Notes: a model not told the origin generated them from the sequence alone. Counted from the first letter of the stretch, positions 1 to 54,270 are shown. The stretch is DNA of 64,000 nucleotides from Candidatus Nomurabacteria bacterium (GCA_020632015.1 JACKGI010000003.1:1421-65420), one strand, 5' to 3'. Made by a program: numbers and translations.

Positions 1-288
1 TTATTACGATTCAAAATTATAAACAAGAAACATACGAAAATATACAGGCGCTTAGCATATTGCTAGAAAATAATGAGTTTACGAATATATTTTCTGTATG
101 CAGAGCATAAGACCCCCAAGGGAGAAATAGGCTGTAGCGAGCTGTAAAGGAATTCGCTTCTTGTATAAAATAACTCTAAGAGGGGTTTTCTCTTGCCTTT
201 TTATCTGCGAAGGCCTTTCCTTCGCAACAGTGACAAGTTGTAGAAGACTTGTATACACAACTTACCCCCCCGTGTTAGAATTTCGGTA

Positions 289-1095: not shown

Positions 1096-1163
1096 ACTCT
1101 TTGTCTCTTTGACTCTTATAAACTTTGATTAGTTACTATGTTTTTTAAATCATTAAAGTGTGT

Positions 1164-1514
1164 ATGACTACCGTCCAGAATTTACCAGTCTATACAGAAA
1201 GCTACGATCTTTTACTTGAATTTTTTCGCCACGCCAAGAACTTCACTAAGGAATATAAGTATACTCTCGGAGAGCAAGTTAAAAATGAAATTATCGCACT
1301 GGTGTTGGATGTATATCGAGCGAATTCTTCACAAGTGGACAGAGTAGGGAATATTCAGTCGGCACGGGAGCGGGTGGAAGTAGTTCGCTTGTTACTTAGA
1401 TTACTACGTGATCTACACCAGCTTTCGATTGAACATTTTGTAGCTTTGAATACTAGTATAGAGTCGGTCAGTCGTCAGTTATCTGGGTGGTTACGTAAGA
1501 GTCAGAGTGTATAA
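1164..1514 (+). CDS. avd: Avd-like accessory variability determinant (four-helix-bundle / 23S rRNA intervening-sequence protein family)
   Basis: Small helical basic protein (YKYTLGEQVKNE...RLLLRLLRDLHQLS) sitting between the target gene and the TR. ATG at 1164 is preferred over the upstream GTG at 1158. Confidence 0.7.
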   Translation: MTTVQNLPVYTESYDLLLEFFRHAKNFTKEYKYTLGEQVKNEIIALVLDVYRANSSQVDRVGNIQSARERVEVVRLLLRLLRDLHQLSIEHFVALNTSIESVSRQLSGWLRKSQSV

Positions 1515-1700
1515 TAAGAATGCTAGAGCTGTGTCTTGCTACGGCATGCACAGGAATGCAAGATGAATCCAGTCACCCTCTAATTTAGAAATCCAATCTT
1601 CTTAATTAGGAGGCGGTACAGTAGTGATACCCTTGCGTGAGGCACAATCTCCTAAAGAGCATGTCTTGCGTGAAAGATAAGTGGTGGCTATCCCAGTAGT

Positions 1701-1875
1701 TGGCCGGCAACGGCAACTCTGGTTCCTTCTTCAATCGCGGTACGAACGGCAACTTCTGGTCATCTTCGGAGTCTGGCACCAATGCTTGGAACCGGAACGT
1801 GAACTCTGGTTCAGCGCAGGTCAACCGGAACACGAACGACCAGTCGAACGGTTTATCTGTGCGTTGCGTAGAGGA
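1701..1875 (+). repeat. DGR template repeat (TR)
   Basis: Adenine-rich (many AAC) near-copy of the VR, located 50 nt upstream of the RT start. The apparent ORFs 1700-1918 and 1681-1935 are by-products of the TR. Confidence 0.85.
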
Positions 1876-1881
1876 TTTATC

Positions 1882-1912
1882 ACAAGGGGCGAGCCGAAGG
1901 CTCGCCCCTTGT
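1882..1912 (+). other. GC-rich stem-loop between TR and RT (about 13-14 bp stem, GAAG loop)
   Basis: acaaggggcgagcc-gaag-ggctcgccccttgt. Probably part of the DGR RNA spacer structure. Confidence 0.6.
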
Positions 1913-1925
1913 ATGTAACAACACT

Positions 1926-3098
1926 ATGCACATAAAAAATCCTCAATTATTAACTGATTTGTTTCAAGCATACGAAGACGCTAGAAGACACAAGCGGAAA
2001 ACAAAAGGAGTTTTAGAATTTTCACTTAATTACGAAGAAAGACTATTTCAACTCTATGAAGATTTGGTGTACCGTCGCTATAAAATCGCCCCATCGACTT
2101 GCTTTATTGTAACTAAGCCAGTATGGCGGGAGATATTTGCTGGCGATTTTCGTGACCGCATAGTGCATCATTTGTTGTTTAATTACTTAAACCCATTCTG
2201 TGAACGGCTGTTTATCAATGACAGTTATGCCTGCAGGAAAGGTAAAGGCACGAGTTATGGCATTAGCAGAGCTGACCACTTCATACGTTCGATGTCAGAA
2301 AATTACACCCGTGACTGCTGGGTACTCAAATTAGATATTAGTGGGTACTTTATGTCGATTAACCACTCAATCTTACAAGAAAAAGTGCTCAAAATTATAG
2401 AACGGTATGAAGAGGAAATTAAGTTTGACCAGTCACTTGTGCGGTGGCTACTTGAGAAAATAATTTTTCATAATCATGTCGAACAGTGTATTCGTAGAGG
2501 CGAGGTGAGTGATTGGTCTATATTACCACGGTCGAAAAGTCTTTTTTACGCTAAGTCAGGTTGTGGTTTGCCAATTGGCAATCTCACTTCTCAGCTCTTT
2601 GGGAATGTGTACTTGAATGATTTTGATCATTTTGCAATGAGGTTGGTGCCGTGTTTACGATATGGGCGGTATGTAGACGATATGTTGTTTGTTCATAAGG
2701 ACCGTGAGACTTTGCTTAGAATTGTAAGTTCAGTTCGGGAATTCTTATCAACTAGACTGTTACTTATATTACATCCGAACAAGGTACGACTTGGACGATA
2801 TGAACACGGGGTGGATTTTCTCGGGGCAAGATTATATTGTGGAAGAATACTTCCACAACAGCAGTTAGTAAGAAATCTAAGAGAAAATATTTGTCAATGG
2901 AACGAAAGTGCGGATACTTCTTCTCTAAGTAGAGAAGAAGTATCCGCACTTATTTCATCATTCAACTCTTCCTTGGGACACTTTGTTAATTTCCAGACAA
3001 GACAACTAAGAAAAGATTTATTAAGTATGAATAACGCTAGTTTGATGACATATATTAGGTCGGACAATAAATATAGGAAAGTGGTTATGGTGAGGTGA
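1926..3098 (+). CDS. DGR reverse transcriptase
   Basis: RT motifs: GKGTSYG, LKLDISGYF, IGNLTSQLFGNVYLNDFDHF (DGR-type motif 4), and the YVDD catalytic box. TGA stop. Confidence 0.9.
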   Translation: MHIKNPQLLTDLFQAYEDARRHKRKTKGVLEFSLNYEERLFQLYEDLVYRRYKIAPSTCFIVTKPVWREIFAGDFRDRIVHHLLFNYLNPFCERLFINDSYACRKGKGTSYGISRADHFIRSMSENYTRDCWVLKLDISGYFMSINHSILQEKVLKIIERYEEEIKFDQSLVRWLLEKIIFHNHVEQCIRRGEVSDWSILPRSKSLFYAKSGCGLPIGNLTSQLFGNVYLNDFDHFAMRLVPCLRYGRYVDDMLFVHKDRETLLRIVSSVREFLSTRLLLILHPNKVRLGRYEHGVDFLGARLYCGRILPQQQLVRNLRENICQWNESADTSSLSREEVSALISSFNSSLGHFVNFQTRQLRKDLLSMNNASLMTYIRSDNKYRKVVMVR

Positions 3099-3142
3099 AA
3101 TAGGTTGGCACTACGTGTTCGAGCGGTTTTTCTATAAAATTG

Positions 3143-3333
3143 TTGCAAAATAAGTAAATATAAGTATACTGACCCCAGCTTTAAAAGACCTATGTACGGA
3201 CTTGTTTCCGGACCAATGGGCACAAATCGCGTGTTTTTACGTTGAGCTTGTGCTTGCGTGATACACGCGATTTGTTGTATGGGTCTAACATTTTTATGTT
3301 ATTAAAGCGGATTATTAATTAGGTTCATACGAA
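3143..3333 (+). promoter_or_regulatory. Putative promoter (TTGCAA-N16-TATACT) and structured leader upstream of rplC
   Basis: -35 at 3143-3148 and -10 at 3165-3170. Perfect 13-bp inverted repeat acaaatcgcgtgt / acacgcgatttgt (3222-3275) lies in the leader. Confidence 0.4.
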
Positions 3334-3957
3334 ATGAAATTCATTCTAGGAACAAAGACGGGCATGACACAAGTCTTCGACGCTGAAGGTGTGTGTCGCG
3401 CAGCTACCGTTCTTAAAGTTTCACCTGCGAAAGTATCACAGGTAAAAACTTCTGAGAAAGATGGTTACGCAGCTGTACAGCTTGCTTCTGGTACACAGAA
3501 GGAACAACGTGTAGCTAAGGCTCAAAAAGGTCACTTCGGTGGCGCGGTTGCTCAATCAAGAGAATTTCGACCAAGAACTGGCGAAGAAACAAAAATCGAA
3601 GGTGCTGAAAAAGGTGCTTCTCATGATGTTTCTGTCTTCGAACCAGGCGATGACATCACTGTATCTGCTATCTCAAAAGGTAAGGGATTCCAAGGTGTTG
3701 TTAAGCGTCACGGCTTCAAAGGAGGTCGTCGAAGTCATGGTCAAAAGCACTCTGAGCGAGAGCCAGGGTCAATTGGAGCAACAGGGATTGGTCACGTACT
3801 TAAGGGCACTCGAATGGGTGGCCGAATGGGAAATGACAAAATCACAGTGAAGGGTCTAAAGGTTCTTCAGGTAAATGCAGCAGAAAACATTCTTGTTGTA
3901 TCAGGAGCTGTCCCAGGTCGAAAGGGCACATTAGTAGAGGTCTTCATGACTAACTAA
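3334..3957 (+). CDS. rplC: 50S ribosomal protein uL3
   Basis: Translation is typical of L3 (KGKGFQGVVKRHGF, GNDKITV). First gene of the cluster. Confidence 0.97.
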   Translation: MKFILGTKTGMTQVFDAEGVCRAATVLKVSPAKVSQVKTSEKDGYAAVQLASGTQKEQRVAKAQKGHFGGAVAQSREFRPRTGEETKIEGAEKGASHDVSVFEPGDDITVSAISKGKGFQGVVKRHGFKGGRRSHGQKHSEREPGSIGATGIGHVLKGTRMGGRMGNDKITVKGLKVLQVNAAENILVVSGAVPGRKGTLVEVFMTN

Positions 3958-3971
3958 GTAATCACTATAAT

Positions 3972-4652
3972 ATGAATGCAAAAGTATATTCTCGAGAAGG
4001 GAAAGAAACTGGTAGCGTAGAGCTTCCAGAAGCAGTGTTTGGTGTTGCTTGGAATGCAGACCTTGTGCACGAAGTAGTAGTTGGAATGCAAGCAAATGCT
4101 CGCAATAGTACAGCTCACACTAAAGACCGAAGTGAAGTGAGTGGTGGTGGTAAGAAGCCATGGCGACAAAAAGGAACCGGTCGAGCACGACATGGTTCGA
4201 ACCGTTCTCCAATTTGGACTGGTGGAGGTGTAACCTTCGGACCACGTTCAGAAAAGGACTATTCAGTAAAAATCAACAAGAAGGTAAAGGCTAAAGCTTT
4301 GGCTTCAGTACTTTCAAAGAAACTTACTGATAACGAAGTTTTGTTTGTTGACTCTCTAAAGATGGAAGAGCCAAAAACAAAAGAAGCAAAAGCTATTGTC
4401 GCAGCAATTGCCAAGGGAGCTGATCAAGCTTCTCTAGCAACAAAGCGTAAGAATGCAGCAGTTGTGATTCTTGCAGATAGAAGTCTAGCTACTGAAAAGA
4501 GTTTCCGAAACTTTGGAAATATCGAAGTAGTAATGGCGAAGGATATCAACCCAGTTGAACTCCTAACTTATAAGTATGTAGTAGTGGCGGACGCTCCAGC
4601 TTCTGTAGAAATTCTAGCTGGTCGTGTAGCGACAACTCCTAAGTCAAAATAG
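3972..4652 (+). CDS. rplD: 50S ribosomal protein uL4
   Basis: L4 hallmarks (GGGKKPWRQKGTGRAR) and conserved order. Confidence 0.97.
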   Translation: MNAKVYSREGKETGSVELPEAVFGVAWNADLVHEVVVGMQANARNSTAHTKDRSEVSGGGKKPWRQKGTGRARHGSNRSPIWTGGGVTFGPRSEKDYSVKINKKVKAKALASVLSKKLTDNEVLFVDSLKMEEPKTKEAKAIVAAIAKGADQASLATKRKNAAVVILADRSLATEKSFRNFGNIEVVMAKDINPVELLTYKYVVVADAPASVEILAGRVATTPKSK

Positions 4653-4653
4653 T

Positions 4654-5028
4654 ATGGCTCTCTTTGGAAAAAAGAAAGAAACCAAAACAAAGAGTGACAA
4701 GGACGTAGTGAAGGTTGACGTGTCAAAAGCACACGCAACAGACTTCGACCTTACAGCTGTAATCGTTGGACCACGACTGTCTGAAAAGACAGTTGGTCTT
4801 GGGGAAAGCAATAACGTCTACACTTTTTTAGTGCGACGTGATGCAACCAAGTATCAAGTTCGAGATGCAGTAAAATCACTCTACAATGTGACGCCGGTGA
4901 AAGTAAACATCGTCAACAAAAAGCCTGCCGAAAGAATGGTAGGAAGTCGAAATCGAACTAAGCACGTTCAAGGCGAAAAGAAGGCCTACGTGTATCTTAA
5001 AAAGGGTGACACCATTAATCTTGTCTAG
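4654..5028 (+). CDS. rplW: 50S ribosomal protein uL23
   Basis: Position between L4 and L2. L23-like core with an N-terminal basic extension. Confidence 0.9.
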   Translation: MALFGKKKETKTKSDKDVVKVDVSKAHATDFDLTAVIVGPRLSEKTVGLGESNNVYTFLVRRDATKYQVRDAVKSLYNVTPVKVNIVNKKPAERMVGSRNRTKHVQGEKKAYVYLKKGDTINLV

Positions 5029-6866: not shown

Positions 6867-8315
6867 ATGAAAGTTTCAGGTTTTACTTCATCAATCCAGA
6901 TTGTTTTTGTGGCAGTCACACTTTTTCTACTGGCTTTGCCAGTAGTTTCTAATGCCCAGTCTACAAATGAATGTTCATTTGGTCAGACTCTAGATATTGG
7001 AGTTGTAGATGAGAGCGTAAGGTGTCTACAAGTATATCTAAATAATAACGGGTTCGTTTTGGCGACAGAAGGTCCAGGGTCGCCAGGGAATGAGACAAAC
7101 AAATTTGGTAGCTTAACAAAAGCTGCGGTTATTAAGTGGCAAGAAGACAAGGGAGTAAGTCCTACTAGTGGTGTGTTTGGACCAAAGTCACAAGCTGCCT
7201 ACCTACTTAGTTTAGTTGCTAGTCTGGAGTCTCAAAAACCAGTAGCTATCCTCCCTAATCCTACTCCGCAACCGATTGTTGCTGGAGCTTCTACAGATGC
7301 AGACAGCGAAGCTCAAGAGGGTGCAGAAAGAATCCTAGGTGCAACTATGGAGATGATCTTGGATACTTTTGATGAACTAGAAGACTTACGTGATGATGAT
7401 CCAGAAGAAGCTGAAGACATAGACGAAGATGTTCGTGATGTAATTGAGTCTCTATTTGATGCTTTACGAGCTTACTTTAGTGGTGACTACAAAAATGCAG
7501 AGGCAGATGCTGATGAAGTGTTAGATGATGCAACTAATGCTTTTGAGGACGCTGGTGGAGAATCAGAAGCTAGCGAAGCTGAAGACATCATTGAAGATGT
7601 CGAGGATTTGCTTGAGGATGTACAAGATATGTTCGAAGAGGCTGAAGACAAGGGAGATGATGTTGGTGACGCAGAAGATATGATTGAAGAAGCTGAGGAT
7701 CTTCTCGATGACGCCCGAGAAGCTTTTGAAAATCGAATTTATCGACAAGCTATCAGCGACGCACTTGATGCAGAAGAATTGCTTGAAGACGCTGAGGATG
7801 AAATCGATATTGTTACTCAAAAAGATGCTGAAGAAGCAGTTGACGATGCAATCGATGCATTTGAAGAAGCAGAGGATGAAGTTGACGAAGCAGAAGAGGA
7901 TGGTGACGAGGTAGAAGATTCGCAAGACCTTCTAGACGACGCAGAACGAGAAATCAAGAAAGCGGAAATTGCTCTAGACGATGAGGATTGGCAAGAAGCA
8001 ATGGAGCGCGCAAAGAAGGCCGAAGATTTGATTGAAGATGCTCTGGATGATATCGGTTCATCTTCAGATGATGATGAGGATGAGGCGGAAGAAGCACTTG
8101 AGGATGCATGGGATGAGTATAGAGACGCAAAAGATGAAATCGAAGAAGCGGACGATGATGGCGACGATATTGGTGATGCTGAGGATTATCTAGATGAAGC
8201 CAAAGACTTATTAAATGATGCGGAAGATGCCCTAGATGATGAAGACTGGGATGAAGTAATGGATTTGGTTGATGATGCACTAGATGCGATTGATGACGCA
8301 CTAGATGAACTCTAG
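6867..8315 (+). CDS. Secreted protein: signal peptide, peptidoglycan-binding (PG_binding_1-like) domain, ~350-aa hyper-acidic D/E helical repeat region
   Basis: Signal peptide ending VSNA/QS. PG-binding-like segment VRCLQVYLNNNGF...LTKAAVIKWQEDKG. Long Asp/Glu repeats (AEDLLDDAE, DEDWQEAMERAKKAEDLIEDALDD). Confidence 0.75.
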   Translation: MKVSGFTSSIQIVFVAVTLFLLALPVVSNAQSTNECSFGQTLDIGVVDESVRCLQVYLNNNGFVLATEGPGSPGNETNKFGSLTKAAVIKWQEDKGVSPTSGVFGPKSQAAYLLSLVASLESQKPVAILPNPTPQPIVAGASTDADSEAQEGAERILGATMEMILDTFDELEDLRDDDPEEAEDIDEDVRDVIESLFDALRAYFSGDYKNAEADADEVLDDATNAFEDAGGESEASEAEDIIEDVEDLLEDVQDMFEEAEDKGDDVGDAEDMIEEAEDLLDDAREAFENRIYRQAISDALDAEELLEDAEDEIDIVTQKDAEEAVDDAIDAFEEAEDEVDEAEEDGDEVEDSQDLLDDAEREIKKAEIALDDEDWQEAMERAKKAEDLIEDALDDIGSSSDDDEDEAEEALEDAWDEYRDAKDEIEEADDDGDDIGDAEDYLDEAKDLLNDAEDALDDEDWDEVMDLVDDALDAIDDALDEL

Positions 8316-8329
8316 AAAGTAGGTAAGTA

Positions 8330-8366
8330 AAAAAGCCGGCGCCCTCTGGGGCGCCGGCTTTTTTAT
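8330..8366. terminator. Bidirectional GC hairpin terminator
   Basis: aaaaagccggcgcc-ctctg-gggcgccggctttttt. Confidence 0.75.
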
Positions 8367-8680
8367 TCTCCGGGTTTTCTGTTTCTCTCCTTGAATTCAA
8401 ATTCGCGTAGTTTTTTGCTGGTTTTGAGTTGTGCTATCACAAAATCTGGTTTGTCTTTGGTGTGTACAGCAACTCGCTGGCTACTTTGCCCGCTTATAAG
8501 CAACTCAAAACCAGCCATTGTGTACGACACTGTAATGAATCTACCACCAGCACTTCTTTTGTTTGTACGAATTTCCCCTGGTGCTATCATCTTGATTCCA
8601 GAAATTTTCTCCAACTCACGCACCACCAAATCAGCCGTTTCTGTTAGGGTAGTGTGTTCTTTCCCTCGTGGCTTTGACAT
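8363..8680 (-). CDS. Hypothetical protein (105 aa)
   Basis: ORF only. No family recognised. Confidence 0.45.
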   Translation of the reverse strand: MSKPRGKEHTTLTETADLVVRELEKISGIKMIAPGEIRTNKRSAGGRFITVSYTMAGFELLISGQSSQRVAVHTKDKPDFVIAQLKTSKKLREFEFKERNRKPGE

Positions 8681-38539: not shown

Positions 38540-38644
38540 GGTGACGTCCTCTTGTTGTATTGAACCATCTAGTTAAAAGTTAGTACGGATAGCTTGATTT
38601 GTAAACACCCGCTCGCAGAGCGAACGGGTGTTTGAAAAAATATA

Positions 38645-38967
38645 TGTGGTCTTATCATAACGCTTGCTCGAACTACTTGGTCGCGAAGCGACTAACGCTG
38701 GCCGCGCGGAGCGCGTGGTGATGCGGTACTTCCGCGTACGCATTCGCGTTCGTGGTGATGCCTCACGCTCCTTACAGTAGCGGTACACCCTTTGGCTATA
38801 TTCTCCTTGCGTCAAATCTAGCGCAAAAGGTCTTGCGAAAGTCTCCCAGACTTTCTCACCTCCCACCGCCTCCGCTACCCGCTCCGGCGGTACGCTCTCC
38901 AGAACCTCCTTTGCAGTATTCCTTTTTCTTTTGGGCCCGGGAATAGTTTTTGAATATGGAAAAGGAG
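38645..38967 (-). repeat. 323-bp GC-rich repeat, left copy (X); perfect inverted copy at 44173-44495
   Basis: My base-by-base comparison found no mismatch between the copies. Identical spurious ORF translations appear in both copies. Confidence 0.95.
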
Positions 38968-39213
38968 TTCTGTCGGGCGCACTTCCACTATGTCGTGGAA
39001 GTAGGGAGGTGCTCCCGAATTCGGTGCCTCGTGACTTGTTTCCTCGCTAGTGGTTGTCCAGGCTAAAGGTGTGGCACCCTCGGCATCCGCCTCGGGCTAT
39101 TTACGTTAGTGCTTGCCCCACGCCCTCGCGCTGACGCGCTCGGGCTCCCGCCAGTGCATTCATTGGGTTTCACTACAGTATTAATATCGAGTTCCTAGAT
39201 TAAATATTACTTC
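38645..39213 (-). ncRNA. Candidate large structured noncoding RNA (~570 nt) directly downstream of the 977-aa gene; class unknown
   Basis: Visibly GC-rich compared with its flanks. 38968-39213 has no ORF of 60 aa or more in any frame. Many local hairpins (gaaagtc-tggga-gactttc, ttccac-gacata-gtggaa, accgcc...ggcggt, gtcgc-ttc-gcgac). A hairpin at about 38600-38632 follows on the minus strand. Confidence 0.3.
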
Positions 39214-42147
39214 TTAATAATTATTTGGAAGATTGTATGGTTTAATATCTTTTATATCAATAAATCCATTATCTATTCTTTCATCAGTTTTGTTGCGCTG
39301 CCAAGACATGTTTGATTCAAAAACTAGTTTCAAGTCCTCGGGTGTAATGTTTTTCTTTATAAAGTTTTCTATCTCGGGGTCGCTCATGTCCGATGGGTTA
39401 AATGACTCAATATTTTCCAACATACCAATTTCCATCAACACCTTAGTATCAGTTGCTAGTCTACTCAAAGTAGTATTATCTTGCTCTAGCCCTTCGACCC
39501 TAAGTAGAACCGGATTGCTGTCTGCGTATGTAGACCAGTACTTTTCAAAAGTACTAATTATTTCATCACCATCTTCTTCAGACACGTTTTTGTATCCAGC
39601 TTTTAAATATTCCTCTTTACGATTAGTGATTGACTGAACTTTTCTGAGCACATTTCTTTTCGCTTTTTCGTAATCTCTTTCTGAAAAAGCACCGTCTGTC
39701 ATAACATTTAACCACTCAGGGCTACCTTTAGCATAATTAACAGCACCGCCTGAACTCTCACAGCTACCCGTTAAGAACAGCTTATTTGATGAATTAATGT
39801 CATACCAGCCGATAAATTCATTTTTAGGAACATTATTTCGTTCCAGTATGTCCGACAATCTATCAAGATCTGCTTCAAATCCTCGCTCACTACTTTTTGC
39901 CCTGCCACTTTCTAGTATTTCTCTTAAAGCCACACTGTTGGTGCCGTGATACATAACGCCCATTTGTTTATCGTACAGTGACAGACAAACATCTAGGGCA
40001 CTTTCAATGTTTGAATCAAAATCAACAGAAAGATTTTTACTTTCTAGATTAATCATGGAATCAAAAAGTAATTTTCTCTCTTCATTAAAAATTTTGTGAT
40101 CTGGCAATGAAGCTAATTCATTGAAATCTACGCCACGTAACTCGTCCATCATTAGGGTCAAACTATCTAAGGAATCGTCACATTGCATAAGTAATGAAGA
40201 TGCGAAACCCAGTAATATTTCACGCGCTTTTTTATCTTCATAAGATTCAAAAAACGCATTAAATTTTTCTCCTTGTAGAAAAGAAGAGACTTTCATTTGT
40301 TCAAAATTACTATCTTTTTTCATAAGACTGCTTTTGGTCTTTGAATTTTTAACACTTCTTCTTTCTCTCCATTTGTCAAAGTTTCCATCCATATATGCCC
40401 ACAAAGCAGTTTTATCAGTTAGTGTTTCCTTTGGAAAACCAACCAGCTCGAGTGCGCCAGGATACTGCTGTTCGTATACTTGATTTATTTTAAAAATATC
40501 ATTTTGATTCCGGACTCTAATCCAAGGCAAAACTTCACTTTCGATTTTTAGTAAAGACCTCTCGCCATTCTTGGTCTCTATTGTTTCTATTGAGCCTACT
40601 ATAAAACCACGATCGATTTTATCCTGCCAATCTGCCACCTCTTCGCTGTCAGCAGTAGTTTTTTCGTAAGGGTACTCTGTTCTGAAAATTTCTGCGGGCA
40701 TTTTTTCTAACCCACTGGCTTTTATACCAGCAACACGATGTGTCCCGTCAAAAACCGAATAAATTGGACCTGCTGGACCTTCATAACTAGCTAATTTAAT
40801 CCTCTCATTTGTTCCATCTTCCGTGTGAAAAATTCTCTCAATCCCAGTTTCATCTTCTGGATTGTTCACTTGCTGTACTATTTCGCTGATTCGTCCACCA
40901 CGCTCGTCATACTCATGTGCCCATCCATTTTCATAATTATCAGCGTTTGGTCTACCGACAATTTTATCTGTTTCTACAAATTCAAAAATGCTTTGTTCTG
41001 CACGAGAGGGTTCAACATCATAGAGGGTTTTAGTGTCTATAATTGGTTCACCCTTTAATCTTTCGTAATCTGGCTCCTTATTGATTTTTCCTTCGCCCAT
41101 CTGCTCTCGGATCGTTTTTATCGTTTCCACTTTCGTTATTTCTGTTGGAGATTCGATACCACCCTCTGTTTCTACTATTGGTTTCGATTTAGCTGTTCCT
41201 ACTTCAGCAGGTGTCATTCGATCGTAGTAGGCACTTTTTTGAGGAAACCTGTCTCTAAATAATTTTTCTGCAGTTTCTGAAGGATCATATTTTATATTTC
41301 TTTTAAATTCACGATCGTCATCGCTGCTATACGTATCAGCCTCCTTCAAACAGGCGGCATAATCAGGATCCTCCTTTAGCGACTTAGGGAGCTCCTCTTC
41401 AGAAACTCCCGCAGCTACAACCGCATCAATTTCTGATTGAACAGATTCACGATTTTGGGCTAAGACATCAATCCCTTCTTTTTCTTTCATCAGAGTTTCG
41501 TAACGATCTGATACACCACTCATTTCCACTAATACGTCACGTCTGTGTAACTTAAGACGATCTGAATCGGGGTCGCCAGACTCGATAGATGTGTTCAGAT
41601 CGTCTAACTCAGCTTGAAGTTTTTCTGTAGCTCGATGATTACGTTCTATACGCTCATTGAAATCTGCTTCTTGCTTATCAAACGATGAAAGCTGGTTGCG
41701 TAATTCTGCAGTCCGCTGGTCTATTACTTGGTCAGCAACGAATCCTTTGACAACCTCGTCTTCTTGTTCGGGTGATTCAGCACCAGAGTTGATGAGATCA
41801 ATATCAAGTCGACTACTGGATATACTATGTTCAGCTCTACTAATCCTGTTTTGAATTTCTGGTAAATGAAACTCGAAGTGAGAAGGCTCGGTTGTATTGT
41901 TATTTCTCCACCTTTCCAGATCTGCTAAGGCGGTATCTCGACCAATTTCGGTTAAACGGATTCCTTCTTCAAGAGCCTCGACCCGTTCCTGAGGCGTGTC
42001 CTCAATAGGGTAGCTTTCTACTTCTACGCTTTCTGGAGCACTAAGAGATTCATCTGGTTGCTCGGACATCTCAGACTCCCCACTTGTTTCAGTGGGAGGT
42101 GTTGCGGAAGGATTCTCAAAACTCTCTTTCATACTCATATGATACAC
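39214..42147 (-). CDS. Large (977 aa) multidomain protein: acidic coiled-coil N-terminus, central ParB/sulfiredoxin-like motif, C-terminal region with a possible ADP-ribosyltransferase/Tpt1-like motif
   Basis: ParB-type signature SVFDGTHRVAGIKASGLEKMPAEI (aa ~464-487). C-terminal MYHGTNSVALREILESG (aa ~732-748) resembles the HG[ST]...IL..G start of PARP/Tpt1-type folds. GTG start at 42147, or ATG at 42138 or 42132. Confidence 0.6.
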   Translation of the reverse strand: MYHMSMKESFENPSATPPTETSGESEMSEQPDESLSAPESVEVESYPIEDTPQERVEALEEGIRLTEIGRDTALADLERWRNNNTTEPSHFEFHLPEIQNRISRAEHSISSSRLDIDLINSGAESPEQEDEVVKGFVADQVIDQRTAELRNQLSSFDKQEADFNERIERNHRATEKLQAELDDLNTSIESGDPDSDRLKLHRRDVLVEMSGVSDRYETLMKEKEGIDVLAQNRESVQSEIDAVVAAGVSEEELPKSLKEDPDYAACLKEADTYSSDDDREFKRNIKYDPSETAEKLFRDRFPQKSAYYDRMTPAEVGTAKSKPIVETEGGIESPTEITKVETIKTIREQMGEGKINKEPDYERLKGEPIIDTKTLYDVEPSRAEQSIFEFVETDKIVGRPNADNYENGWAHEYDERGGRISEIVQQVNNPEDETGIERIFHTEDGTNERIKLASYEGPAGPIYSVFDGTHRVAGIKASGLEKMPAEIFRTEYPYEKTTADSEEVADWQDKIDRGFIVGSIETIETKNGERSLLKIESEVLPWIRVRNQNDIFKINQVYEQQYPGALELVGFPKETLTDKTALWAYMDGNFDKWRERRSVKNSKTKSSLMKKDSNFEQMKVSSFLQGEKFNAFFESYEDKKAREILLGFASSLLMQCDDSLDSLTLMMDELRGVDFNELASLPDHKIFNEERKLLFDSMINLESKNLSVDFDSNIESALDVCLSLYDKQMGVMYHGTNSVALREILESGRAKSSERGFEADLDRLSDILERNNVPKNEFIGWYDINSSNKLFLTGSCESSGGAVNYAKGSPEWLNVMTDGAFSERDYEKAKRNVLRKVQSITNRKEEYLKAGYKNVSEEDGDEIISTFEKYWSTYADSNPVLLRVEGLEQDNTTLSRLATDTKVLMEIGMLENIESFNPSDMSDPEIENFIKKNITPEDLKLVFESNMSWQRNKTDERIDNGFIDIKDIKPYNLPNNY

Positions 42148-42179
42148 TTAATTAAACCTTTTTATAAATAAATATTTTT

Positions 42180-42512
42180 ATGCAAAATCAAGATTTTCAA
42201 GATTTTTTGTTTAAGCTGTATGACTTCACAGACCGCTTAGCAGACGAAGCTCAGTTCGACCCGTCTCAGGAGAGTGTTCGAATCCTAACGTTAATTTTCA
42301 TAGAGCAATACTTTGACAGTATTGGTCGGGGTGAAATTAGCCAAGCAGCAAGAGAAAGTGGTGCTGATGCACAGCAATCACTTTCAGAAGCTCATAAGAG
42401 AATTGATGAACTGCGAGGTCAGATAAACTCACTCGTCTCTAAAATTGAAGATATTGAACCTATGGAAAGGTACGCCAGAGAGATAGTGGCTCAGTGGCTT
42501 AAAAAGAACTAA
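42180..42512 (+). CDS. Hypothetical small helical protein (110 aa)
   Basis: ORF divergent from the 977-aa gene. Only 4 nt separate it from the next ORF. Confidence 0.55.
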   Translation: MQNQDFQDFLFKLYDFTDRLADEAQFDPSQESVRILTLIFIEQYFDSIGRGEISQAARESGADAQQSLSEAHKRIDELRGQINSLVSKIEDIEPMERYAREIVAQWLKKN

Positions 42513-42516
42513 TCAT

Positions 42517-43311
42517 ATGGCTAATGATGATAGTGATCTAGAATTTGAATTGATAAGTTTTGTCGACCTGGTTAAACATACCCTTCTAGATATGTTTGAG
42601 TTTAGTGCTCACTCATTTGAAAGCATCCAAGGTCCATATTATTGGAATGGTCTCGGAATGGACTTTATGACCTCAATGCCAACCGAGAAAGTTTTGAAAC
42701 ATGCCGAGCAAGAAGGTGCCAAAAAGGTATATCTTGCTCACACTCATCCCTTGTCGAATGATGATGTATGCAAGTTTCTAAATATAAAAGTTGATCCCCG
42801 TGAGGAAATGGCGTTTGGCTATAAAGCACTACCTTTAGGGAACAAACCTTCATCAGGTGATATCTCATTTCTCAGTCAATTTCAGAAAGACTTTGAAGAT
42901 GCTGGTATTGAAGTGTCTGGTGTAGTGTTTTCTGCCACAGGATTATGGGAATTTAGTATAGTTGACATCCTCAACTTTAACTCCGATAAGTTTGTGGGAG
43001 CGTATGACGTCGTCTTTCCGATTGAAGACAGTGAGGACTTTTTTGATGAACTTTCAGCTAGAAGCGCTTTCCCGAGCTATTTTATGGAACTGCAGAAGCC
43101 AAAAATTAGGGACAATTCATACCAAACACAGCTTGATGGGAAACGAGACATCTCTCCTGTTGATTATAATGAGAACATCGAGTCAATTGTAAAATTTTTT
43201 GGCGATAACGGTATTAGGCTTAAATTTTACCTGTATTCAGACTTTAATATCAATCCACAACAAGTCATGGCTGATACTATTGATCAGTGGTCGGGTCAGT
43301 TCACAACTTAG
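42517..43311 (+). CDS. Hypothetical protein with possible JAB/MPN (JAMM) metallopeptidase motif
   Basis: AEQEG...LAHTHP...(32 aa)...PSSGDISFL resembles E / HxH / SxxD, but the HxH-to-S spacing is unusually long. Confidence 0.4.
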   Translation: MANDDSDLEFELISFVDLVKHTLLDMFEFSAHSFESIQGPYYWNGLGMDFMTSMPTEKVLKHAEQEGAKKVYLAHTHPLSNDDVCKFLNIKVDPREEMAFGYKALPLGNKPSSGDISFLSQFQKDFEDAGIEVSGVVFSATGLWEFSIVDILNFNSDKFVGAYDVVFPIEDSEDFFDELSARSAFPSYFMELQKPKIRDNSYQTQLDGKRDISPVDYNENIESIVKFFGDNGIRLKFYLYSDFNINPQQVMADTIDQWSGQFTT

Positions 43312-43877
43312 AAAACAAGTTCCACAATTTTATCAGCTGTCACATAGACAATGTTAGTATTGTTGTATTTCTGCACCAGACTGTCTTTTGTTGGGTATGT
43401 ATGACCGTGAAAAAAGTATTTTGGCTGCTTCTGGTCCAAATAATTTCGTAAGGCAATTAAGCCTGTGTGGGCAGGGTCATCTTCATCATTGATACCTGCA
43501 GGTGGTGAATGTGCAATAAACACATCAACATATGGAAAGTCTTTCATAAGCTCAACAGCTTCTTCTTGTGTGTACATTTTTGCAAATTGATCATTCTTGT
43601 ACTTGTGTGATCCATCAAAACCACCGAAGGTTATACCGCCAACTTCTATTGTATTCAAGTGCATATCTGCGATACCTAATTGCTCCATATAGCCTGGTGT
43701 GCAGTGATTACCATAAACACCAATCTTTGGAATGTTCGTAATTAATTCAAGTTCCGCGATCTGGGTATATTCAAGGTCACCAAGTGTAATAACTAAATCA
43801 ATATTCTCATCCAGAACTTGATCTTTAATCGAACTTTTAGGTGGGCGATCTGCTATTACTAGTACTTTTAGATCCAT
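43308..43877 (-). CDS. Calcineurin-like metallophosphoesterase (YfcE/MJ0936-like)
   Basis: VLVIADRP, ITLGDL, VYGNHC, IAHSPP, FHGHTY. ATG at 43877, directly after the HTH stop. Confidence 0.8.
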   Translation of the reverse strand: MDLKVLVIADRPPKSSIKDQVLDENIDLVITLGDLEYTQIAELELITNIPKIGVYGNHCTPGYMEQLGIADMHLNTIEVGGITFGGFDGSHKYKNDQFAKMYTQEEAVELMKDFPYVDVFIAHSPPAGINDEDDPAHTGLIALRNYLDQKQPKYFFHGHTYPTKDSLVQKYNNTNIVYVTADKIVELVF

Positions 43878-43881
43878 GATA

Positions 43882-44103
43882 CTAATCGACGAAGTAGTCG
43901 AGTTTTCTTTTGAATAATTTTGCAATTGCTGAGAGTTCGATAACGTCAATTCGTCGTTCGCCTCGTTCGATCTTTGAAATGTATGATTGAGGTTTGCCAA
44001 GCTTCTCAGCAGCTTCAGTTTGCGTCAAACCGGCCGCTTCGCGGGCTTCGCAAAGTTTCTTGATGACTGTTTTGTATTCACTGCTGTGAATTGACTTTGG
44101 CAT
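43882..44103 (-). CDS. XRE-family helix-turn-helix transcriptional regulator
   Basis: LTQTEAAEKLGKPQSYISKIERGERRIDVIEL. Confidence 0.88.
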   Translation of the reverse strand: MPKSIHSSEYKTVIKKLCEAREAAGLTQTEAAEKLGKPQSYISKIERGERRIDVIELSAIAKLFKRKLDYFVD

Positions 44104-44116
44104 ACGACTTAAATGT

Positions 44117-44150
44117 ATAACCCATTGTAGGATAACCCAAAATAGGTTAT
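44117..44150. promoter_or_regulatory. Putative operator of the XRE regulator: three ATAACC half-sites
   Basis: ATAACCCA at 44117-44124 and 44132-44139, with inverted GGTTAT at 44145-44150, immediately upstream of the HTH gene. Confidence 0.4.
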
Positions 44151-44172
44151 TCTTTTATTATCCTCCAGAACA

Positions 44173-44495
44173 CTCCTTTTCCATATTCAAAAACTATTCC
44201 CGGGCCCAAAAGAAAAAGGAATACTGCAAAGGAGGTTCTGGAGAGCGTACCGCCGGAGCGGGTAGCGGAGGCGGTGGGAGGTGAGAAAGTCTGGGAGACT
44301 TTCGCAAGACCTTTTGCGCTAGATTTGACGCAAGGAGAATATAGCCAAAGGGTGTACCGCTACTGTAAGGAGCGTGAGGCATCACCACGAACGCGAATGC
44401 GTACGCGGAAGTACCGCATCACCACGCGCTCCGCGCGGCCAGCGTTAGTCGCTTCGCGACCAAGTAGTTCGAGCAAGCGTTATGATAAGACCACA
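44173..44495 (+). repeat. 323-bp GC-rich repeat, right copy (X'), inverted relative to 38645-38967
   Basis: No mismatch found by eye. The 3' end (gataagaccaca) abuts the 139-bp repeat Y. Confidence 0.95.
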
Positions 44496-44629
44496 AATTG
44501 AAACATTACTCATTCCACGACCCCTATCCGCAAAGCGGATAGGGGTTTGTGTGTGCATGAAATCGGTTTTTGTATTGTACGCAAAGACCAATTCCGAGAG
44601 GACGGGCACGCCGAAGCGCGCGGATTTGT
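44491..44629 (+). repeat. 139-bp inverted repeat, left copy (Y)
   Basis: Its reverse complement matches 46047-46185 with no mismatch by my comparison. Contains the hairpin cccctatccg-caaa-gcggatagggg followed by TTTGTGTG. Confidence 0.95.
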
Positions 44630-44656
44630 TCTTGTTTTAAGTATCTTCAATGCATT

Positions 44657-46201
44657 ATGTCCAAACCAAAATATTTTCTATATGCTCGCAAGAGCACCGA
44701 GGATGATGACAAGCAGGTGATGAGTATCGAAGCTCAGTTGTTTGAGCTTCGTGAGTTTGCTCGCAAAGAAAATCTTGAAATCCTAGTGGAGTTTCAAGAG
44801 TCAAAAAGCGCAAAGACACCAGGGCGACCTGTATTCAATGACATGATGCGGGCTATCGAGGAGCAAGAAGAAATCGGCATATTGGCGTGGCATCCGGACA
44901 GACTTGCTCGCAACTCGATAGATGGTGGTCGCATCATTTACCTTGTCGATCAGGGGAAGTTAGTGTCTATGCGCTTTCCGACTTTTTGGTTTGAACCTAC
45001 CCCGCAGGGGCTCTTTATGTTGCAAGTGGCGTTTGGCCAGTCGAAATATTACTCGGATAATCTCCAAGAGAATATTCGTCGGGGGATGCGCCAAAAACTC
45101 CGCCGTGGAGAGTGGTTGTGTAAAGCGCCGCTCGGGTACACAAACAATCCCAAGACCAGAAATATTGAGCCAGTTGGTTTTCAAGCGCGGGTGATAAAGT
45201 TAGCATTTGAAAAATACGCGAAGGGCGGAACTGGTCTTGAGGCATTGGCGGAGTTTATGGCGCATCATGGTATGACGACTCAGGAAGGAACGCCACTTGG
45301 CAAAGCTACCGTGAAGCGAATGCTTTCGAATCGGGCATATATCGGACTTACGAAACATAAGGGCGAATGGTTTCCCGGTAGCTTTGCACCAATTATTTCC
45401 TCGAAATTATTTGAAGACGTGCAACGAGCACTCAAAGTGCGCGAGAAGCCGCGGAAGCGCAAGGTACGACATGATTTTCCTTTTGCTGGACTTTTTCAGT
45501 GTGCGGAGTGTGGCGGCATGTTTACTGCTCAGTGGGCAACAGGGAAGACAGGGCAGCGGTATAGATACTATCGTTGCACTAAGAAAAAGGGAGTCTGTAC
45601 GCAAAAGTACTTGCGTGAGGAGGAACTTCTCGCGCAGATAAAAGATCGTCTTCAAAAAATTTCGCTTTGCGATAATGTGCTTGAGGAGTTGGAGCGTCAG
45701 CTCACAGAGATTGAAAAAGCAGAACATCAATCATCGCAAAGCGACCTCCAAAATCTTTCTGAAAGTATCAAAGCGGGTGAAGCGCGCTTGAATAAGTTGG
45801 TCGAGTCGTATCTCGATGGTGATATTCCAAAGGAGCTGTATGTACAGAAGAAAGACGAGATACTCCGCGCAAACACCGCTTTGCATGAAGAAATGAAAGA
45901 TTTTAAACGTCGAGGAAATACTTGGGTCGAACCCCTGCGCGAATGGATTTCAGATACTAAACAAGCCAATTTTTTAACAAACACAGAGGATCTTCAAGAT
46001 ATTCGTGTGTTTGTTGAAAAAATTGGAACGAACCCTTCGGTTCGTGACAAATCCGCGCGCTTCGGCGTGCCCGTCCTCTCGGAATTGGTCTTTGCGTACA
46101 ATACAAAAACCGATTTCATGCACACACAAACCCCTATCCGCTTTGCGGATAGGGGTCGTGGAATGAGTAATGTTTCAATTTGTGGAGATGGGGGGAGTTG
46201 A
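44657..46201 (+). CDS. Large serine recombinase (integrase)
   Basis: N-terminal resolvase domain (KYFLYARKSTEDDDKQVMSIEAQ), recombinase domain, zinc ribbon CAECGG...YYRC, coiled coil. The last ~52 codons read through repeat Y', and the TGA stop lies inside the ssrA T-arm. Confidence 0.9.
   Translation: MSKPKYFLYARKSTEDDDKQVMSIEAQLFELREFARKENLEILVEFQESKSAKTPGRPVFNDMMRAIEEQEEIGILAWHPDRLARNSIDGGRIIYLVDQGKLVSMRFPTFWFEPTPQGLFMLQVAFGQSKYYSDNLQENIRRGMRQKLRRGEWLCKAPLGYTNNPKTRNIEPVGFQARVIKLAFEKYAKGGTGLEALAEFMAHHGMTTQEGTPLGKATVKRMLSNRAYIGLTKHKGEWFPGSFAPIISSKLFEDVQRALKVREKPRKRKVRHDFPFAGLFQCAECGGMFTAQWATGKTGQRYRYYRCTKKKGVCTQKYLREEELLAQIKDRLQKISLCDNVLEELERQLTEIEKAEHQSSQSDLQNLSESIKAGEARLNKLVESYLDGDIPKELYVQKKDEILRANTALHEEMKDFKRRGNTWVEPLREWISDTKQANFLTNTEDLQDIRVFVEKIGTNPSVRDKSARFGVPVLSELVFAYNTKTDFMHTQTPIRFADRGRGMSNVSICGDGGS
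46047..46185 (-). repeat. 139-bp inverted repeat, right copy (Y'), which is the region immediately downstream of ssrA including its terminator hairpin
   Basis: Reverse complement of 44491-44629. Shares CCA with the 3' end of ssrA. Confidence 0.95.
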
Positions 46202-46576
46202 ACCCCCGTCCGAATCAGGGTGCGAATATGAGTCTACAGTGCGTAGTACATTCTTTGGTTTAAAGTAGCTAACTAGAGAATGAACAAAACACTAACTACT
46301 CGAGTTGTTACAATCTTGAAAACCTAAGACAACGACAAAGGTTTCCACAGTCTCGTAGCTATTCTACAAGTGTCAGCGTATGAGACGTTTACTGAACTTG
46401 CATCGCATCGGCGAGCGTAAGATTACGCTACAGCGGGTGCGAATCCGAACGCGTTAGCGTAAGGACTTGGTACTGCTTTGTTTGCATGTACAAGACGGAA
46501 CCTTTTAACGAATTGATTACCAGTTTTCGACACTGCACACATCCGACACGACTAACCGTCGATGCCTAGCATCCCC
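46183..46576 (-). ncRNA. ssrA: tmRNA (SsrA)
   Basis: 5' GGGGAUGCUAGGCAUCGACGG. 3' GGACGGGGGUUCAACUCCCCCCAUCUCCA. The acceptor pairs GGGGAUG/CAUCUCC with G3-U. Predicted tag reading frame 46485-46423 gives ANKAVPSPYANAFGFAPAVA*. smpB lies nearby. Confidence 0.9.
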
Positions 46577-46652: not shown

Positions 46653-46696
46653 AATATTTAGTTACAGAAAGGTGGTGGGGAGGTGACTCCCCTAGA

Positions 46697-46858: not shown

Positions 46859-46921
46859 GTGCACTCCTTGTGCCTGTGATGTGATTCGGGACAATTCCCG
46901 TACTACCTTTCTGTAACTAAA

Positions 46922-47368
46922 TTATTGAGATTTCAAGGTTCGATCGATATCGCGTTTTGTGTCGCGAGCTTTCAGAGTTTCGCGTTTATCAAACTTCTTT
47001 TTACCTCGAGCTAAGGCAAATTCAAGCTTTATTTTCCGGCCAGCATTATACAACTTAATTGGTACTGCTGTCAAACCAGCTTTCTCAGTTTGTTGCTCTA
47101 TATGAGCAAGTTCTTTTTTAGATAAGAGTAGTTTACGAGTTCTTTCAGGGTCATAATTCTTAGGAGTATTGGCTGGTTGATAGGGTGAAATACTGGTCCC
47201 TACCAAGAACGCCTCTCCACCTCGAATAATAACGTGAGCCCCTTCCAGCTTGCCTTTGCCTGCTCTGATTGATTTGGCCTCAAAACCTTGTAGCACCAAA
47301 CCCGCTTCGAATGTCTCGAGGATTTCAAAGTTGAAGTGAGCTTTACGATTTTGTATATACGCTTTCAT
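46922..47368 (-). CDS. smpB: SsrA-binding protein SmpB
   Basis: IQNRKAHFNFEILETFEAGLVLQGFEAKSIR...GRKIKLEFALARGKK. Confidence 0.95.
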   Translation of the reverse strand: MKAYIQNRKAHFNFEILETFEAGLVLQGFEAKSIRAGKGKLEGAHVIIRGGEAFLVGTSISPYQPANTPKNYDPERTRKLLLSKKELAHIEQQTEKAGLTAVPIKLYNAGRKIKLEFALARGKKKFDKRETLKARDTKRDIDRTLKSQ

Positions 47369-53981: not shown

Positions 53982-54138
53982 GATGGATTAATTATAGCAG
54001 AATGCTAGACGTTTCTTTGCGAAGTTTTAGGTTCTAGGTGCCGGCGCTCTATTTAGTAGTGAGGTGATATGAAAGTTACTCTCTGAGTCTCCGTACACAG
54101 TTCAAGAAATATTTGCTTACAAACTGAGTTTAATTTTG

Positions 54139-54168
54139 TCCATCCACTAGGACTCGAACCTAGGACTA
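54139..54168 (-). pseudogene. 3' fragment of a tRNA (variable loop, T-arm, acceptor 3' strand UGGAUGG, discriminator A)
   Basis: uaguc-CUAGG-UUCGAGU-CCUAG-UGGAUGG-A. The acceptor strand is perfectly complementary to the 5' fragment at 54353-54390. Confidence 0.6.
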
Positions 54169-54197
54169 TTAGCTATATGGAAATGAAGTTTCCTGTG

Positions 54198-54270
54198 TCC
54201 GCCCGCCAGGACTCGAACCTGGGACCACGAAGGTATAAGCTTCGCGCTCTACCAACTGAGCTACAGGCGG
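54198..54270 (-). tRNA. tRNA-Ile(UAU)
   Basis: Manual cloverleaf: acceptor CCGCCUG/CGGGCGG, D arm GCUC-AGUUGGUA-GAGC, anticodon arm CGAAG-CUUAUAC-CUUCG, variable UGGUC, T arm CCAGG-UUCGAGU-CCUGG. CCA is not encoded. Confidence 0.8.

Follow-up and report, generated by a model that had tools for sequence, protein, structure and literature searches.

Staphylococcal cassette chromosome (SCC) elements are small, nonconjugative, nonphage cassettes with variable cargo that insert at the 3' end of a housekeeping gene, rlmH (orfX), keep this gene active, and form tandem arrays. The tyrosine-integrase islands of the Islander/TIGER type occupy tRNA and tmRNA genes, preserve the target, have the integrase gene at the RNA-gene end, and bring in accessory or defense cargo. 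The large serine integrases of phages (SPbeta SprA, A118, Bxb1, and phiC31) share a domain architecture, leave a core of a few nucleotides in attL and attR, and have an attB motif that lies nearer the center; the use of t(m)RNA genes by serine integrases was called previously unreported and in need of proof, with 14 of 297 elements concerned (PMC7192596). We analyzed a 64-kb stretch of Candidatus Nomurabacteria DNA (GCA_020632015.1, JACKGI010000003.1:1421-65420), called the window here and used for all coordinates of the element, and compared one locus in it with relatives, which carry identifiers of the type L001. We conclude, with a probability of roughly 0.7, that positions 38645 to 46185 are an integrated mobile element of ~7.5 kb from a large-serine-recombinase family that targets the ends of t(m)RNA genes, and that the element has retained an internal, inverted attP. 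To our knowledge, hardly any integrative elements have been described in Patescibacteria.

A sequence-only reading of the window had proposed an accessory island at the 3' end of ssrA driven by a large serine recombinase. This proposal was supported, and the island boundaries, 38645 and ~46185, are exactly where that reading had placed them. The tmRNA gene (ssrA; 46182-46576, minus strand), identified by ARAGORN and Rfam (RF00023, 105 bits), is the integration target, and its sequence is intact up to the discriminator base, an A at 46183, which is the mature 3' end. The recombinase gene (44657-46201, plus strand) encodes 514 amino acids from the likely ATG at 44657, in a reading frame that is open from 44570. 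Its product is a genuine large serine recombinase, as had been claimed, with matches to Pfam Resolvase (residues 7-153; E = 5e-24), Recombinase (DNA-binding domain 1, DBD1; E = 2e-13), and Zn_ribbon_recom (DBD2; E = 2e-12). Residues R11, S13, R82, and R85 are invariant in a 21-sequence alignment, and the closest solved structure is that of the SPbeta integrase (E = 3e-19, aligned over residues 9-421). The Pfam scan detected no tyrosine integrase in the island, and the sole recombinase is of the serine type.

Two pairs of perfect inverted repeats structure the element. The X pair, X at 38645-38968 and X' at 44172-44495, is 324 nt long by self-BLAST rather than 323 nt as first reported (a repeat finder gave 38642-38968 and 44172-44498), and the Y pair, Y at 44491-44629 and Y' at 46047-46185, is 139 nt long, as reported. 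Self-BLAST showed no further copies of X or Y within the window, and perfect repeats of 324 and 139 nt could not have originated by chance. The two pairs had been described as different repeats, but they are instead the two arms, left and right, of one attP-like region, which is present once intact and once split. X' and Y are the left and right arms of the intact internal site, X is an inverted copy of the left arm, and Y' is the right arm of the 139-nt repeat at the ssrA end.

Read in one orientation, the arms form three junctions: Xend-CCACA-flank (S1; core TGTGG at 38645-38649, the site being read on the minus strand), an attR-like hybrid of flank and X; Xend-CCACA-Yend (S2; core CCACA at 44491-44495), an intact, inverted attP-like site where X' meets Y between the XRE and recombinase genes; and ssrA-CCACA-Yend (S3; core TGTGG at 46181-46185, the site again read on the minus strand), an attL-like hybrid of Y' and ssrA. 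The earlier search had found no direct repeat of the ssrA 3' end, and there is indeed no long one, but the short TGTGG is repeated directly at 38645-38649 and 46181-46185. The fourth combination, ssrA-CCACA-flank, would put the tmRNA 3' end directly before a hairpin read from the sequence of the chromosomal flank (38603-38633; minus strand, CCACA-TATATTTTTTC-AAACACCCGTTCGCTCTGCGAGCGGGTGTTT). This hairpin is predicted to be the native ssrA terminator before insertion as well as the right half of the predicted attB. The hybrid junctions and the shared core thus indicate site-specific integration of a donor, Xend/Yend, into a target, ssrA/flank, and we assign S1, S2, and S3 with good confidence to attR, an intact internal attP, and attL, respectively. 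The flank/X junction was identical in independent assemblies from seven samples.

The same layout was found in relatives. We assembled 88 loci from context look-ups and a scan of species-representative genomes, added the window (89 loci in total), and scored the layout by a script using tblastn, reverse-strand self-BLAST, and ARAGORN. A Y pair brackets the recombinase gene in 81 of the 89 loci, with a median arm length of 131 nt and with the arms 1,400 to 1,508 nt apart, and the inner edge of Y' lies at codon 463 in 26 of the ~50 loci whose Y pair is long and well matched. In 65 of the 89 loci, Y' reaches with its outer edge into the 3' end of a convergent RNA gene, the overlap being 4 nt in 51. 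The targets in these 65 loci are tRNA-Glu (26), tRNA-Ser (19), tRNA-Arg (5), tRNA-Ala (5), tRNA-Leu (2), tRNA-Gly (2), tRNA-Lys (1), and tmRNA (5). An X pair was found in 30 loci and is present wherever the upstream sequence suffices, with X' adjoining Y; its arms are 154 to 324 nt long (up to 434 nt in L037) and enclose 1.1 to 8.9 kb. At least 559 loci occur among species-representative genomes, with several copies per genome of 0.6 to 1 Mb, which defines a very abundant mobile-element family in Patescibacteria. If the island genes had been ordinary chromosomal genes, they might have been expected at other loci lacking recombinase and repeats; instead, the relatives have a recombinase and repeats at t(m)RNA genes, together with unrelated cargo.

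This recurrence also bears on whether the inverted duplications are chimeric joins made during assembly, for example, from mixed integrated and excised forms. A metagenome-assembled genome is the source of the window, fold-back chimeras typically show perfect inverted repeats, and other assemblies of this organism break at the X and Y repeats. Even so, we give an assembly artifact next to no credence. Unrelated projects yielded the layout in ~80 loci, and among these are the closed genomes CP129473.1, CP060229.1, and OY970382.1, one assembly being described as long-read; the arms differ by 1 to 2% in several loci, which is impossible for a collapsed repeat; and the joints fall exactly at the conserved core of the RNA gene end. 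An artifact is thereby refuted for the architecture, and only the orientation of the two unique segments in the window stays dependent on the assembler.

All three junctions could be aligned in 21 loci, and the three-site pattern was present in every one of these, with an identity overlap of 3 to 8 nt. The common part of the overlap was TCA, CCG, CCA, or GCA and comprises the discriminator and the two final bases of the acceptor stem. A crossover within these three positions leaves the RNA gene unaltered, and only its trailer is swapped for Yend. Yend starts with a conserved A..GAAACTTC and continues with a hairpin, which in Y is located at 44520-44546, and Y' accordingly supplies ssrA with a new 3' trailer and hairpin. 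With the core set off by hyphens, 52 distinct internal sites have the consensus ttgttcgAAAtagGTTCGcGCAAAGG.TA..ATttcA-cCaCA-aAttGAAACTTCc.

The last ~40 nt of X' hold conserved GTTCG...GCAAAGG motifs. The distance from GTTCG to the core is 24 nt in Xend compared to 18 nt in the tRNA T-loop, a shift of 6 nt, and in large serine integrases the DBD2 motif is 4 to 5 bp nearer the center in attB than in attP (PMC11722253). Judged by this spacing, the left half-sites seem to be of the P and B types. The GTTCG spacing is not mirrored in the right half-sites, and the right half of attB, on the flank side, has no conserved sequence. What the enzymes recognize appears to be the universal tRNA T-arm together with a coevolving core of 2 to 3 nt. 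This suggests that the integrase family is retargetable by nature and that every genome offers it landing sites. Such T-arm-reading, retargeted integrases could become tools for the genetics of Patescibacteria and for insertion at tRNA genes elsewhere.

Compared to the described systems, these elements most resemble SCC cassettes in their lifestyle. SCC elements insert at the rlmH 3' end, whereas tRNA or tmRNA ends are used in 65 loci here; SCC elements also have short terminal repeats and no internal inverted copy of the attachment site, and the hosts here are Patescibacteria. The Islander/TIGER islands share the target class with the present family but use a tyrosine enzyme with crossover inside the anticodon or T loop, in contrast to a serine enzyme acting at the last 3 nt, with 3 to 8 nt of identity and long inverted repeats. 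Unlike the phage large serine integrases, the family was not found in phages, no recombination directionality factor (RDF) was recognized, the right half of attB appears arbitrary, and an intact attP is retained. In viral contigs (IMG/VR), the family was absent except for one distant match of 37% identity, and the prophage reading was therefore dropped. The serine enzyme and this absence agree with the sequence-only conclusion that the island fits neither a tyrosine-integrase tmRNA island nor a prophage nor an insertion sequence (IS). The result is a whole clade of large serine recombinases dedicated to tRNA/tmRNA gene ends. An intact, inverted attP retained from the same arms as the element ends has no natural counterpart in the papers that we found, and it poses a clear mechanistic question. 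No prior description of the family or of a natural internal inverted attP was found in literature searches whose coverage did not extend to all journals, so an earlier description may exist.

We propose that a CcrB/SprA-like recombinase joins attP (Xend-core-Yend) to tRNA and tmRNA genes at their extreme 3' ends, with attB consisting of the T-arm/acceptor end, the core, and whatever trailer follows. Integration would produce attL (ssrA/Y') and attR (flank/X). In addition, the attP region is present in full at 44172-44629, intact and in inverted orientation, with 324 nt belonging to its X side and 139 nt to its Y side. An intact internal attP together with a split copy at the ends accounts for the two pairs of perfect inverted repeats. 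Excision by attL x attR recombination would release a 7.5-kb circle divided by two inverted attP regions into a 1.4-kb segment with the recombinase gene and a 5.2-kb segment with the cargo. We conclude with moderate confidence that the free form has this structure and that one of its attP copies is preferentially used. Integration would normally proceed via the copy between the recombinase 3' end and a noncoding module named Xin; this choice would leave the XRE-attP-recombinase control region intact and the recombinase gene convergent with the RNA gene. Copying between its two versions, and not selection on the sequence, would keep each arm identical to its counterpart.

Parts of this cycle have parallels. 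The yeast 2-micron plasmid (FLP/FRT, 599-bp inverted repeats) resembles the predicted circle in its two segments, one of which holds the recombinase gene, with a site in each repeat, and in its identical arms; however, it uses the tyrosine recombinase FLP, replicates, and flips freely, whereas the present elements have no replication gene, occur as one isomer, and are integrated, their circle being a prediction only. Tn4451 and Tn5397 (TnpX/TndX) likewise form a nonreplicating circle whose joined ends are the donor site, and the recombinase gene is at one end. They differ in using a GA dinucleotide and loosely related targets and in having no long inverted repeats, no internal copy of the joint, and no RNA-gene target. 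MiMIC with phiC31, an engineered system for recombinase-mediated cassette exchange, has a segment between two inverted attP sites, a geometry that permits cassette exchange and not excision; it is man-made, and exchange in the present element is hypothetical.

Several observations weigh against the proposal. The empty site that the sequence-only reading had suggested looking for did not turn up: an exact 27-mer of the ssrA/flank junction had no match in JGI metagenomes, Logan unitigs from five runs branched only between S1 and S2 and not to an empty site, and all seven assemblies recovered by a flank-gene look-up were occupied. No circular junction was found either, and no RDF was identified. 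A palindrome scan of the internal site revealed no clear symmetry axis, and only the left arm has attP-type spacing. A symmetric circle with two identical attP sites predicts both orientations equally, yet ~95% of loci have one isomer. The fixed isomer needs an added assumption, which could be selection or accessory sequences beside one copy. A hairpin at 46028-46045 and Xin flank only the site copy that forms the ends and are candidate signals for the choice of copy. Three loci (L012, L032, and L088) have an intact recombinase gene and arms that are only 77 to 90% identical, indicating that identical arms are not a strict requirement for retaining the gene. Finally, the duplication may serve one of several purposes. 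It might keep the XRE-site-recombinase control region intact in both states, allowing autoregulation like that of Tn3 res; other options are hairpins that insulate each segment at both of its sides, cassette exchange, or a single-stranded form that folds into a duplex attP. Two related look-ups returned little: a 26-mer of the Y' end plus core had only one match in JGI data, a decayed remnant (L101), and an exact look-up of the SmpB product of the window returned nothing on record.

The orientation of the segments was examined across the family. The recombinase gene is convergent with the RNA gene in ~65 loci, with one or two exceptions, and the XRE gene adjoins X' in ~30. The exceptions to the common isomer are L016, where the tRNA gene is codirectional with the recombinase gene, L070, L099, and perhaps L076. 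A programmed inversion, in which the recombinase flips the cargo segment (X-X') and its own gene (Y-Y') to switch expression, would be comparable to Gin, Hin, Cin, the P1 C segment (0.6-kb repeats), and the shufflons. Both segments are indeed bracketed by inverted repeats with the recombinase core at the outer ends, and the alternative orientations in L016, L070, and L099 would be expected of rare flipping. Nevertheless, we regard programmed inversion as very improbable. The near-fixed orientation is not that of a free flip-flop switch; at least 139 or 324 nt of identical context lie on both sides, with nothing obvious to be switched; the enzyme is a 514-amino-acid large serine recombinase and not a small invertase (about 190 amino acids with a C-terminal helix-turn-helix [HTH] domain); and the hybrid sites, horizontal transfer, and tandem arrays point to integration.

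The island might alternatively be two nested elements that are merely adjacent, an IS-like unit (Y-recombinase-Y') and a nonautonomous unit (X-cargo-X') mobilized in trans. Each unit has its own terminal inverted repeats, the units alternate in arrays, and many metagenome contigs of 1.6 to 2.0 kb hold the recombinase unit only. These short contigs, however, are assembler breaks at repeats: contig ends coincide with repeat boundaries, which yields many short contigs. Moreover, the Y end is nearly always joined to the conserved Xend (52 unique sites), and sites without Xend are deletion remnants only (L083, L038, and L047). The ends of the two units are unlike, though independent substrates of one enzyme would need alike ends, and no unit was seen alone between a tRNA gene and its flank. 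Two adjacent elements are therefore hard to credit. The same breakage probably explains why the family has been overlooked, as the repeats split short-read assemblies into pieces of ~1.7 kb.

Arm identity was compared within and between elements. Among 73 Y pairs, 40 were perfect, 13 were 98 to 99.9% identical, 15 were 90 to 98% identical, and 5 were lower; among the X pairs, 14 of 28 were perfect. The interior of X' is not conserved between elements. Eight differences in Y and ~13 in X separate the window from its closest relative, L009, and each is present in both arms of each element, indicating that the arms evolve in concert. Some arms differ by 1 to 2% within a locus. No gradient of mismatches away from the core was seen, so that conversion initiated by core cleavage is unsupported.

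The perfect arms could also reflect a donor that is a folded single strand. X would pair with X' and Y with Y', and the stacked stems would form a double-stranded attP from which the cargo and the recombinase gene would loop out. The strand could come from natural-transformation DNA or the lagging-strand template, pairing and copying could renew the identity of the arms at each transfer, and Xin could prime the second strand. Natural transformation is a documented route of DNA uptake in Patescibacteria. Such a donor would agree with arms that are perfect in most elements though their sequence varies freely between elements, and with mismatches that lack a core gradient and grade continuously from 100% to 77% identity, as if the arms had been identical at insertion and then decayed. 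By reasoning alone, a linearized single-strand circle would give exactly the observed insert. Xin is structured, fixed in orientation, and located beside one arm, and the repeat continues imperfectly beyond Y as a 17-nt motif matching codons 430-436 of the recombinase. We nonetheless judge a folded-strand donor unlikely. The backbone encodes no rolling-circle Rep or other function in single-strand DNA, serine recombinases act on duplex sites and cut both strands, hairpin-capped chromosome ends in need of resolution would result from a double-strand cut within a folded stem, and the fixed isomer is not explained by folding alone. We know of no single-strand substrate for serine recombinases. 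The intrastrand pairing geometry would allow it, as in CTX-phi attP and integron attC, but those systems use a tyrosine recombinase and the enzyme here is a serine recombinase.

It is equally doubtful that the inverted attachment duplicate is an adaptation to the entry of single-strand DNA, in which folding would rebuild a duplex attP and Xin would prime second-strand synthesis. A folded strand might also rebuild a hairpin promoter for the recombinase gene, with the repressor gene, on the wrong strand, staying silent. If true, the element would provide the first case of a folded-strand donor site in a serine-recombinase system and the first of an integrative element designed around transformation.

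Returning to integration from a circle with two attP regions, comparisons with individual loci indicate that the element is mobile. In L009, also inserted at ssrA, the recombinase is 95% identical to that of the window. The X, Y, and recombinase module is 91 to 97% identical between the two loci, compared to 69 to 71% for smpB and ftsH, and the cargo is unrelated. A module that is near identical while the host flanks have diverged indicates recent transfer between species. L099 (JGI 3300010350, contig Ga0116244_10009265, positions 1-4622) has the cargo segment with its X arms next to another chromosomal flank and carries 5.66 kb that are 99.9% identical to window positions 38850-44505. There, the XRE-proximal X arm is joined via CCAC to a flank with a terminator hairpin and a Memo/PGA_cap gene, in an orientation to the flank opposite to that in the window; the other end is missing, as the contig stops inside the repeat. 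The 99.9% identical copy at a second site, together with the L009 pattern, argues for mobility. An unoccupied ssrA gene without Y was found in L021 and L068. In the tandem array L035, a new element used the Xend/flank site of the resident element as attB, and in L079, adjacent tRNA genes are each occupied.

Further loci show variations on these arrangements. L096 (positions 1-151), from another sample of the same host species and with the same flank, was compared with window positions 38645-38795; its X arm has several substitutions and lacks a 95-nt stretch (38762-38856), indicating that variants of the element coexist or replace each other at this site. The three-element array L037 contains near-identical spacer units of ~180 nt at 4702-4881 and 8277-8453, each consisting of a flank-like stretch and a degenerate 3' part of tRNA-Ser, which look like duplicated target sites. 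In the closed genome of L002, a tRNA-Arg gene (4582-4654) lies inside the cargo region, and the flank beyond the X arm (the S1 flank, about 3690-3742) resembles the Y end of another element; these features suggest nested or composite insertions.

More than 6,700 recombinase homologues were found at E < 1e-20. The best 120 are 60 to 97% identical to the recombinase of the window, and among these the homologues with a named source are nearly all from Patescibacteria. Many homologues are on contigs of 1.6 to 2.0 kb. A sister clade of recombinases, ~40% identical, shows the same layout (L035, L037, L061, and L079). In a rough neighbor-joining tree of 60 recombinases, clusters mostly followed the target, and the tmRNA, Ala, Arg, and Glu specificities arose more than once, indicating that retargeting among t(m)RNA genes is frequent. 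The best NCBIfam matches were CcrB, XisF, CcrC, and CcrA, all far under the cutoff (109.6 bits versus 900 for CcrB, 66 versus 900 for CcrC, and 65 versus 700 for CcrA). An inserted coiled coil is putative, from a weak KIF21A-like match at residues 321-409.

The 3' end of the recombinase gene extends into both Y' and ssrA. Residues 464 onward are encoded in Y', and the last 20 nt overlap ssrA. The stop codon is inside the 3' end of ssrA, as the sequence-only reading had it, but the conserved protein ends near residue 480, and the tail that runs into ssrA is not conserved. Directly before Y', still within the coding region, lies the hairpin ACGAACC-NNNN-GGTTCGT (46028-46045), whose stem was unchanged, synonymous positions included, in the seven relatives read, with variation in the loop. 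On the minus strand, it resembles a terminator for ssrA read-through, and the sequence of its 3' arm is similar to the GGTTCG motif in Xend and in the tRNA T-loop. Promoter and terminator scans were uninformative. Between Y and the recombinase ATG, a 17-nt stretch (within 44630-44656; family consensus CTTGTTTCGTATCTAAAA) is the reverse complement of the codons for W-I-L-D-T-K-Q, which are recombinase codons 430-436 (about 45944-45964). The inverted repeat therefore runs on imperfectly across an insertion of ~87 nt, and an mRNA that starts upstream of Y could form a long panhandle.

The element backbone contains only two genes, those for the recombinase and for an XRE-family HTH regulator (43882-44103, minus strand; Pfam HTH_3, E = 4e-18), and no replication gene. 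The regulator, which the sequence-only reading had also recognized, is divergent from the recombinase gene and is found at the same place and on the same strand in ~30 loci with upstream sequence. A small protein or RDF encoded in X' was considered and rejected, because the interior of X' is not conserved between elements.

The remaining genes are cargo. A 977-amino-acid protein of unknown function (39214-42147, minus strand) belongs to an orphan family found in a few genomes of the candidate phyla radiation (CPR), with 14 homologues, and it is followed by genes for two proteins of unknown function of 110 (42180-42512, plus strand) and 264 (42517-43311, plus strand) amino acids. None of the three had a match in Pfam, NCBIfam, or PADLOC, and no profile supports a ParB-like or JAB-like motif in the cargo proteins. 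The fourth gene (43308-43877, minus strand) encodes a calcineurin-like metallophosphoesterase, 189 amino acids as called in L099 and L100, which matches PDC-S10, a PADLOC candidate defense family. The cargo of relatives is mostly defense related, comprising MamI, DpnII, type I, and Eco57I-like restriction-modification systems as well as Shedu SduA, AAA_15/AAA_21 ATPases, ThiF with DUF6791, a reverse transcriptase, and a superfamily 1 (SF1) helicase, and some elements carry metabolic or surface genes instead. Cassettes of defense and unknown genes offer a route to new defense genes in CPR bacteria.

Xin (38969-39213, plus strand) is a GC-rich (55%), structured, noncoding module of the backbone located just inside the flank-proximal X arm. 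Similar modules were found by nhmmer at the same position and on the same strand in L002 (3996-4155), L009 (3603-3751), L067 (4597-4751), and L078 (77-192), and in L070 the module (529-697, minus strand) adjoins X' instead. The first hairpin of Xin shows compensatory base changes. Rfam had no match in X, Y, or Xin. Xin could be a noncoding RNA, a recombination accessory site, or a priming site. A second type of conserved noncoding module, ~300 nt long, occupies the Xin position in at least 15 other loci, among them L003 (4192-4500), L035 (7793-8068), L028 (1938-2250), L058 (4746-5052), L054 (420-705), and L013 (6718-6993), with ~10 more. It contains a hairpin, CATAGGC-CGCTCGCATTCGCTCGCG-GCCTG, with compensatory changes.

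Elsewhere in the window, the stretch at 54120-54200 (minus strand), after a tRNA-Ile gene (54197-54270), contains a Yend-like CAGGAAACTTC; next, a tRNA T-arm/acceptor end is copied over 29 nt (about 54137-54165), and the GGACA-AAATTAAACT beyond it is similar to the L019 junction of the tRNA-Lys type. Older insertions of the same family probably left these features as scars. The tRNA-Ile gene itself has a genomically encoded UAU anticodon, and tRNA-Ile with this anticodon is uncommon in bacteria. On the other side of ssrA from the element, a 21-nt inverted repeat (46656-46676 and 46902-46922; 95% complementary) brackets the 225-nt spacer between ssrA and smpB.

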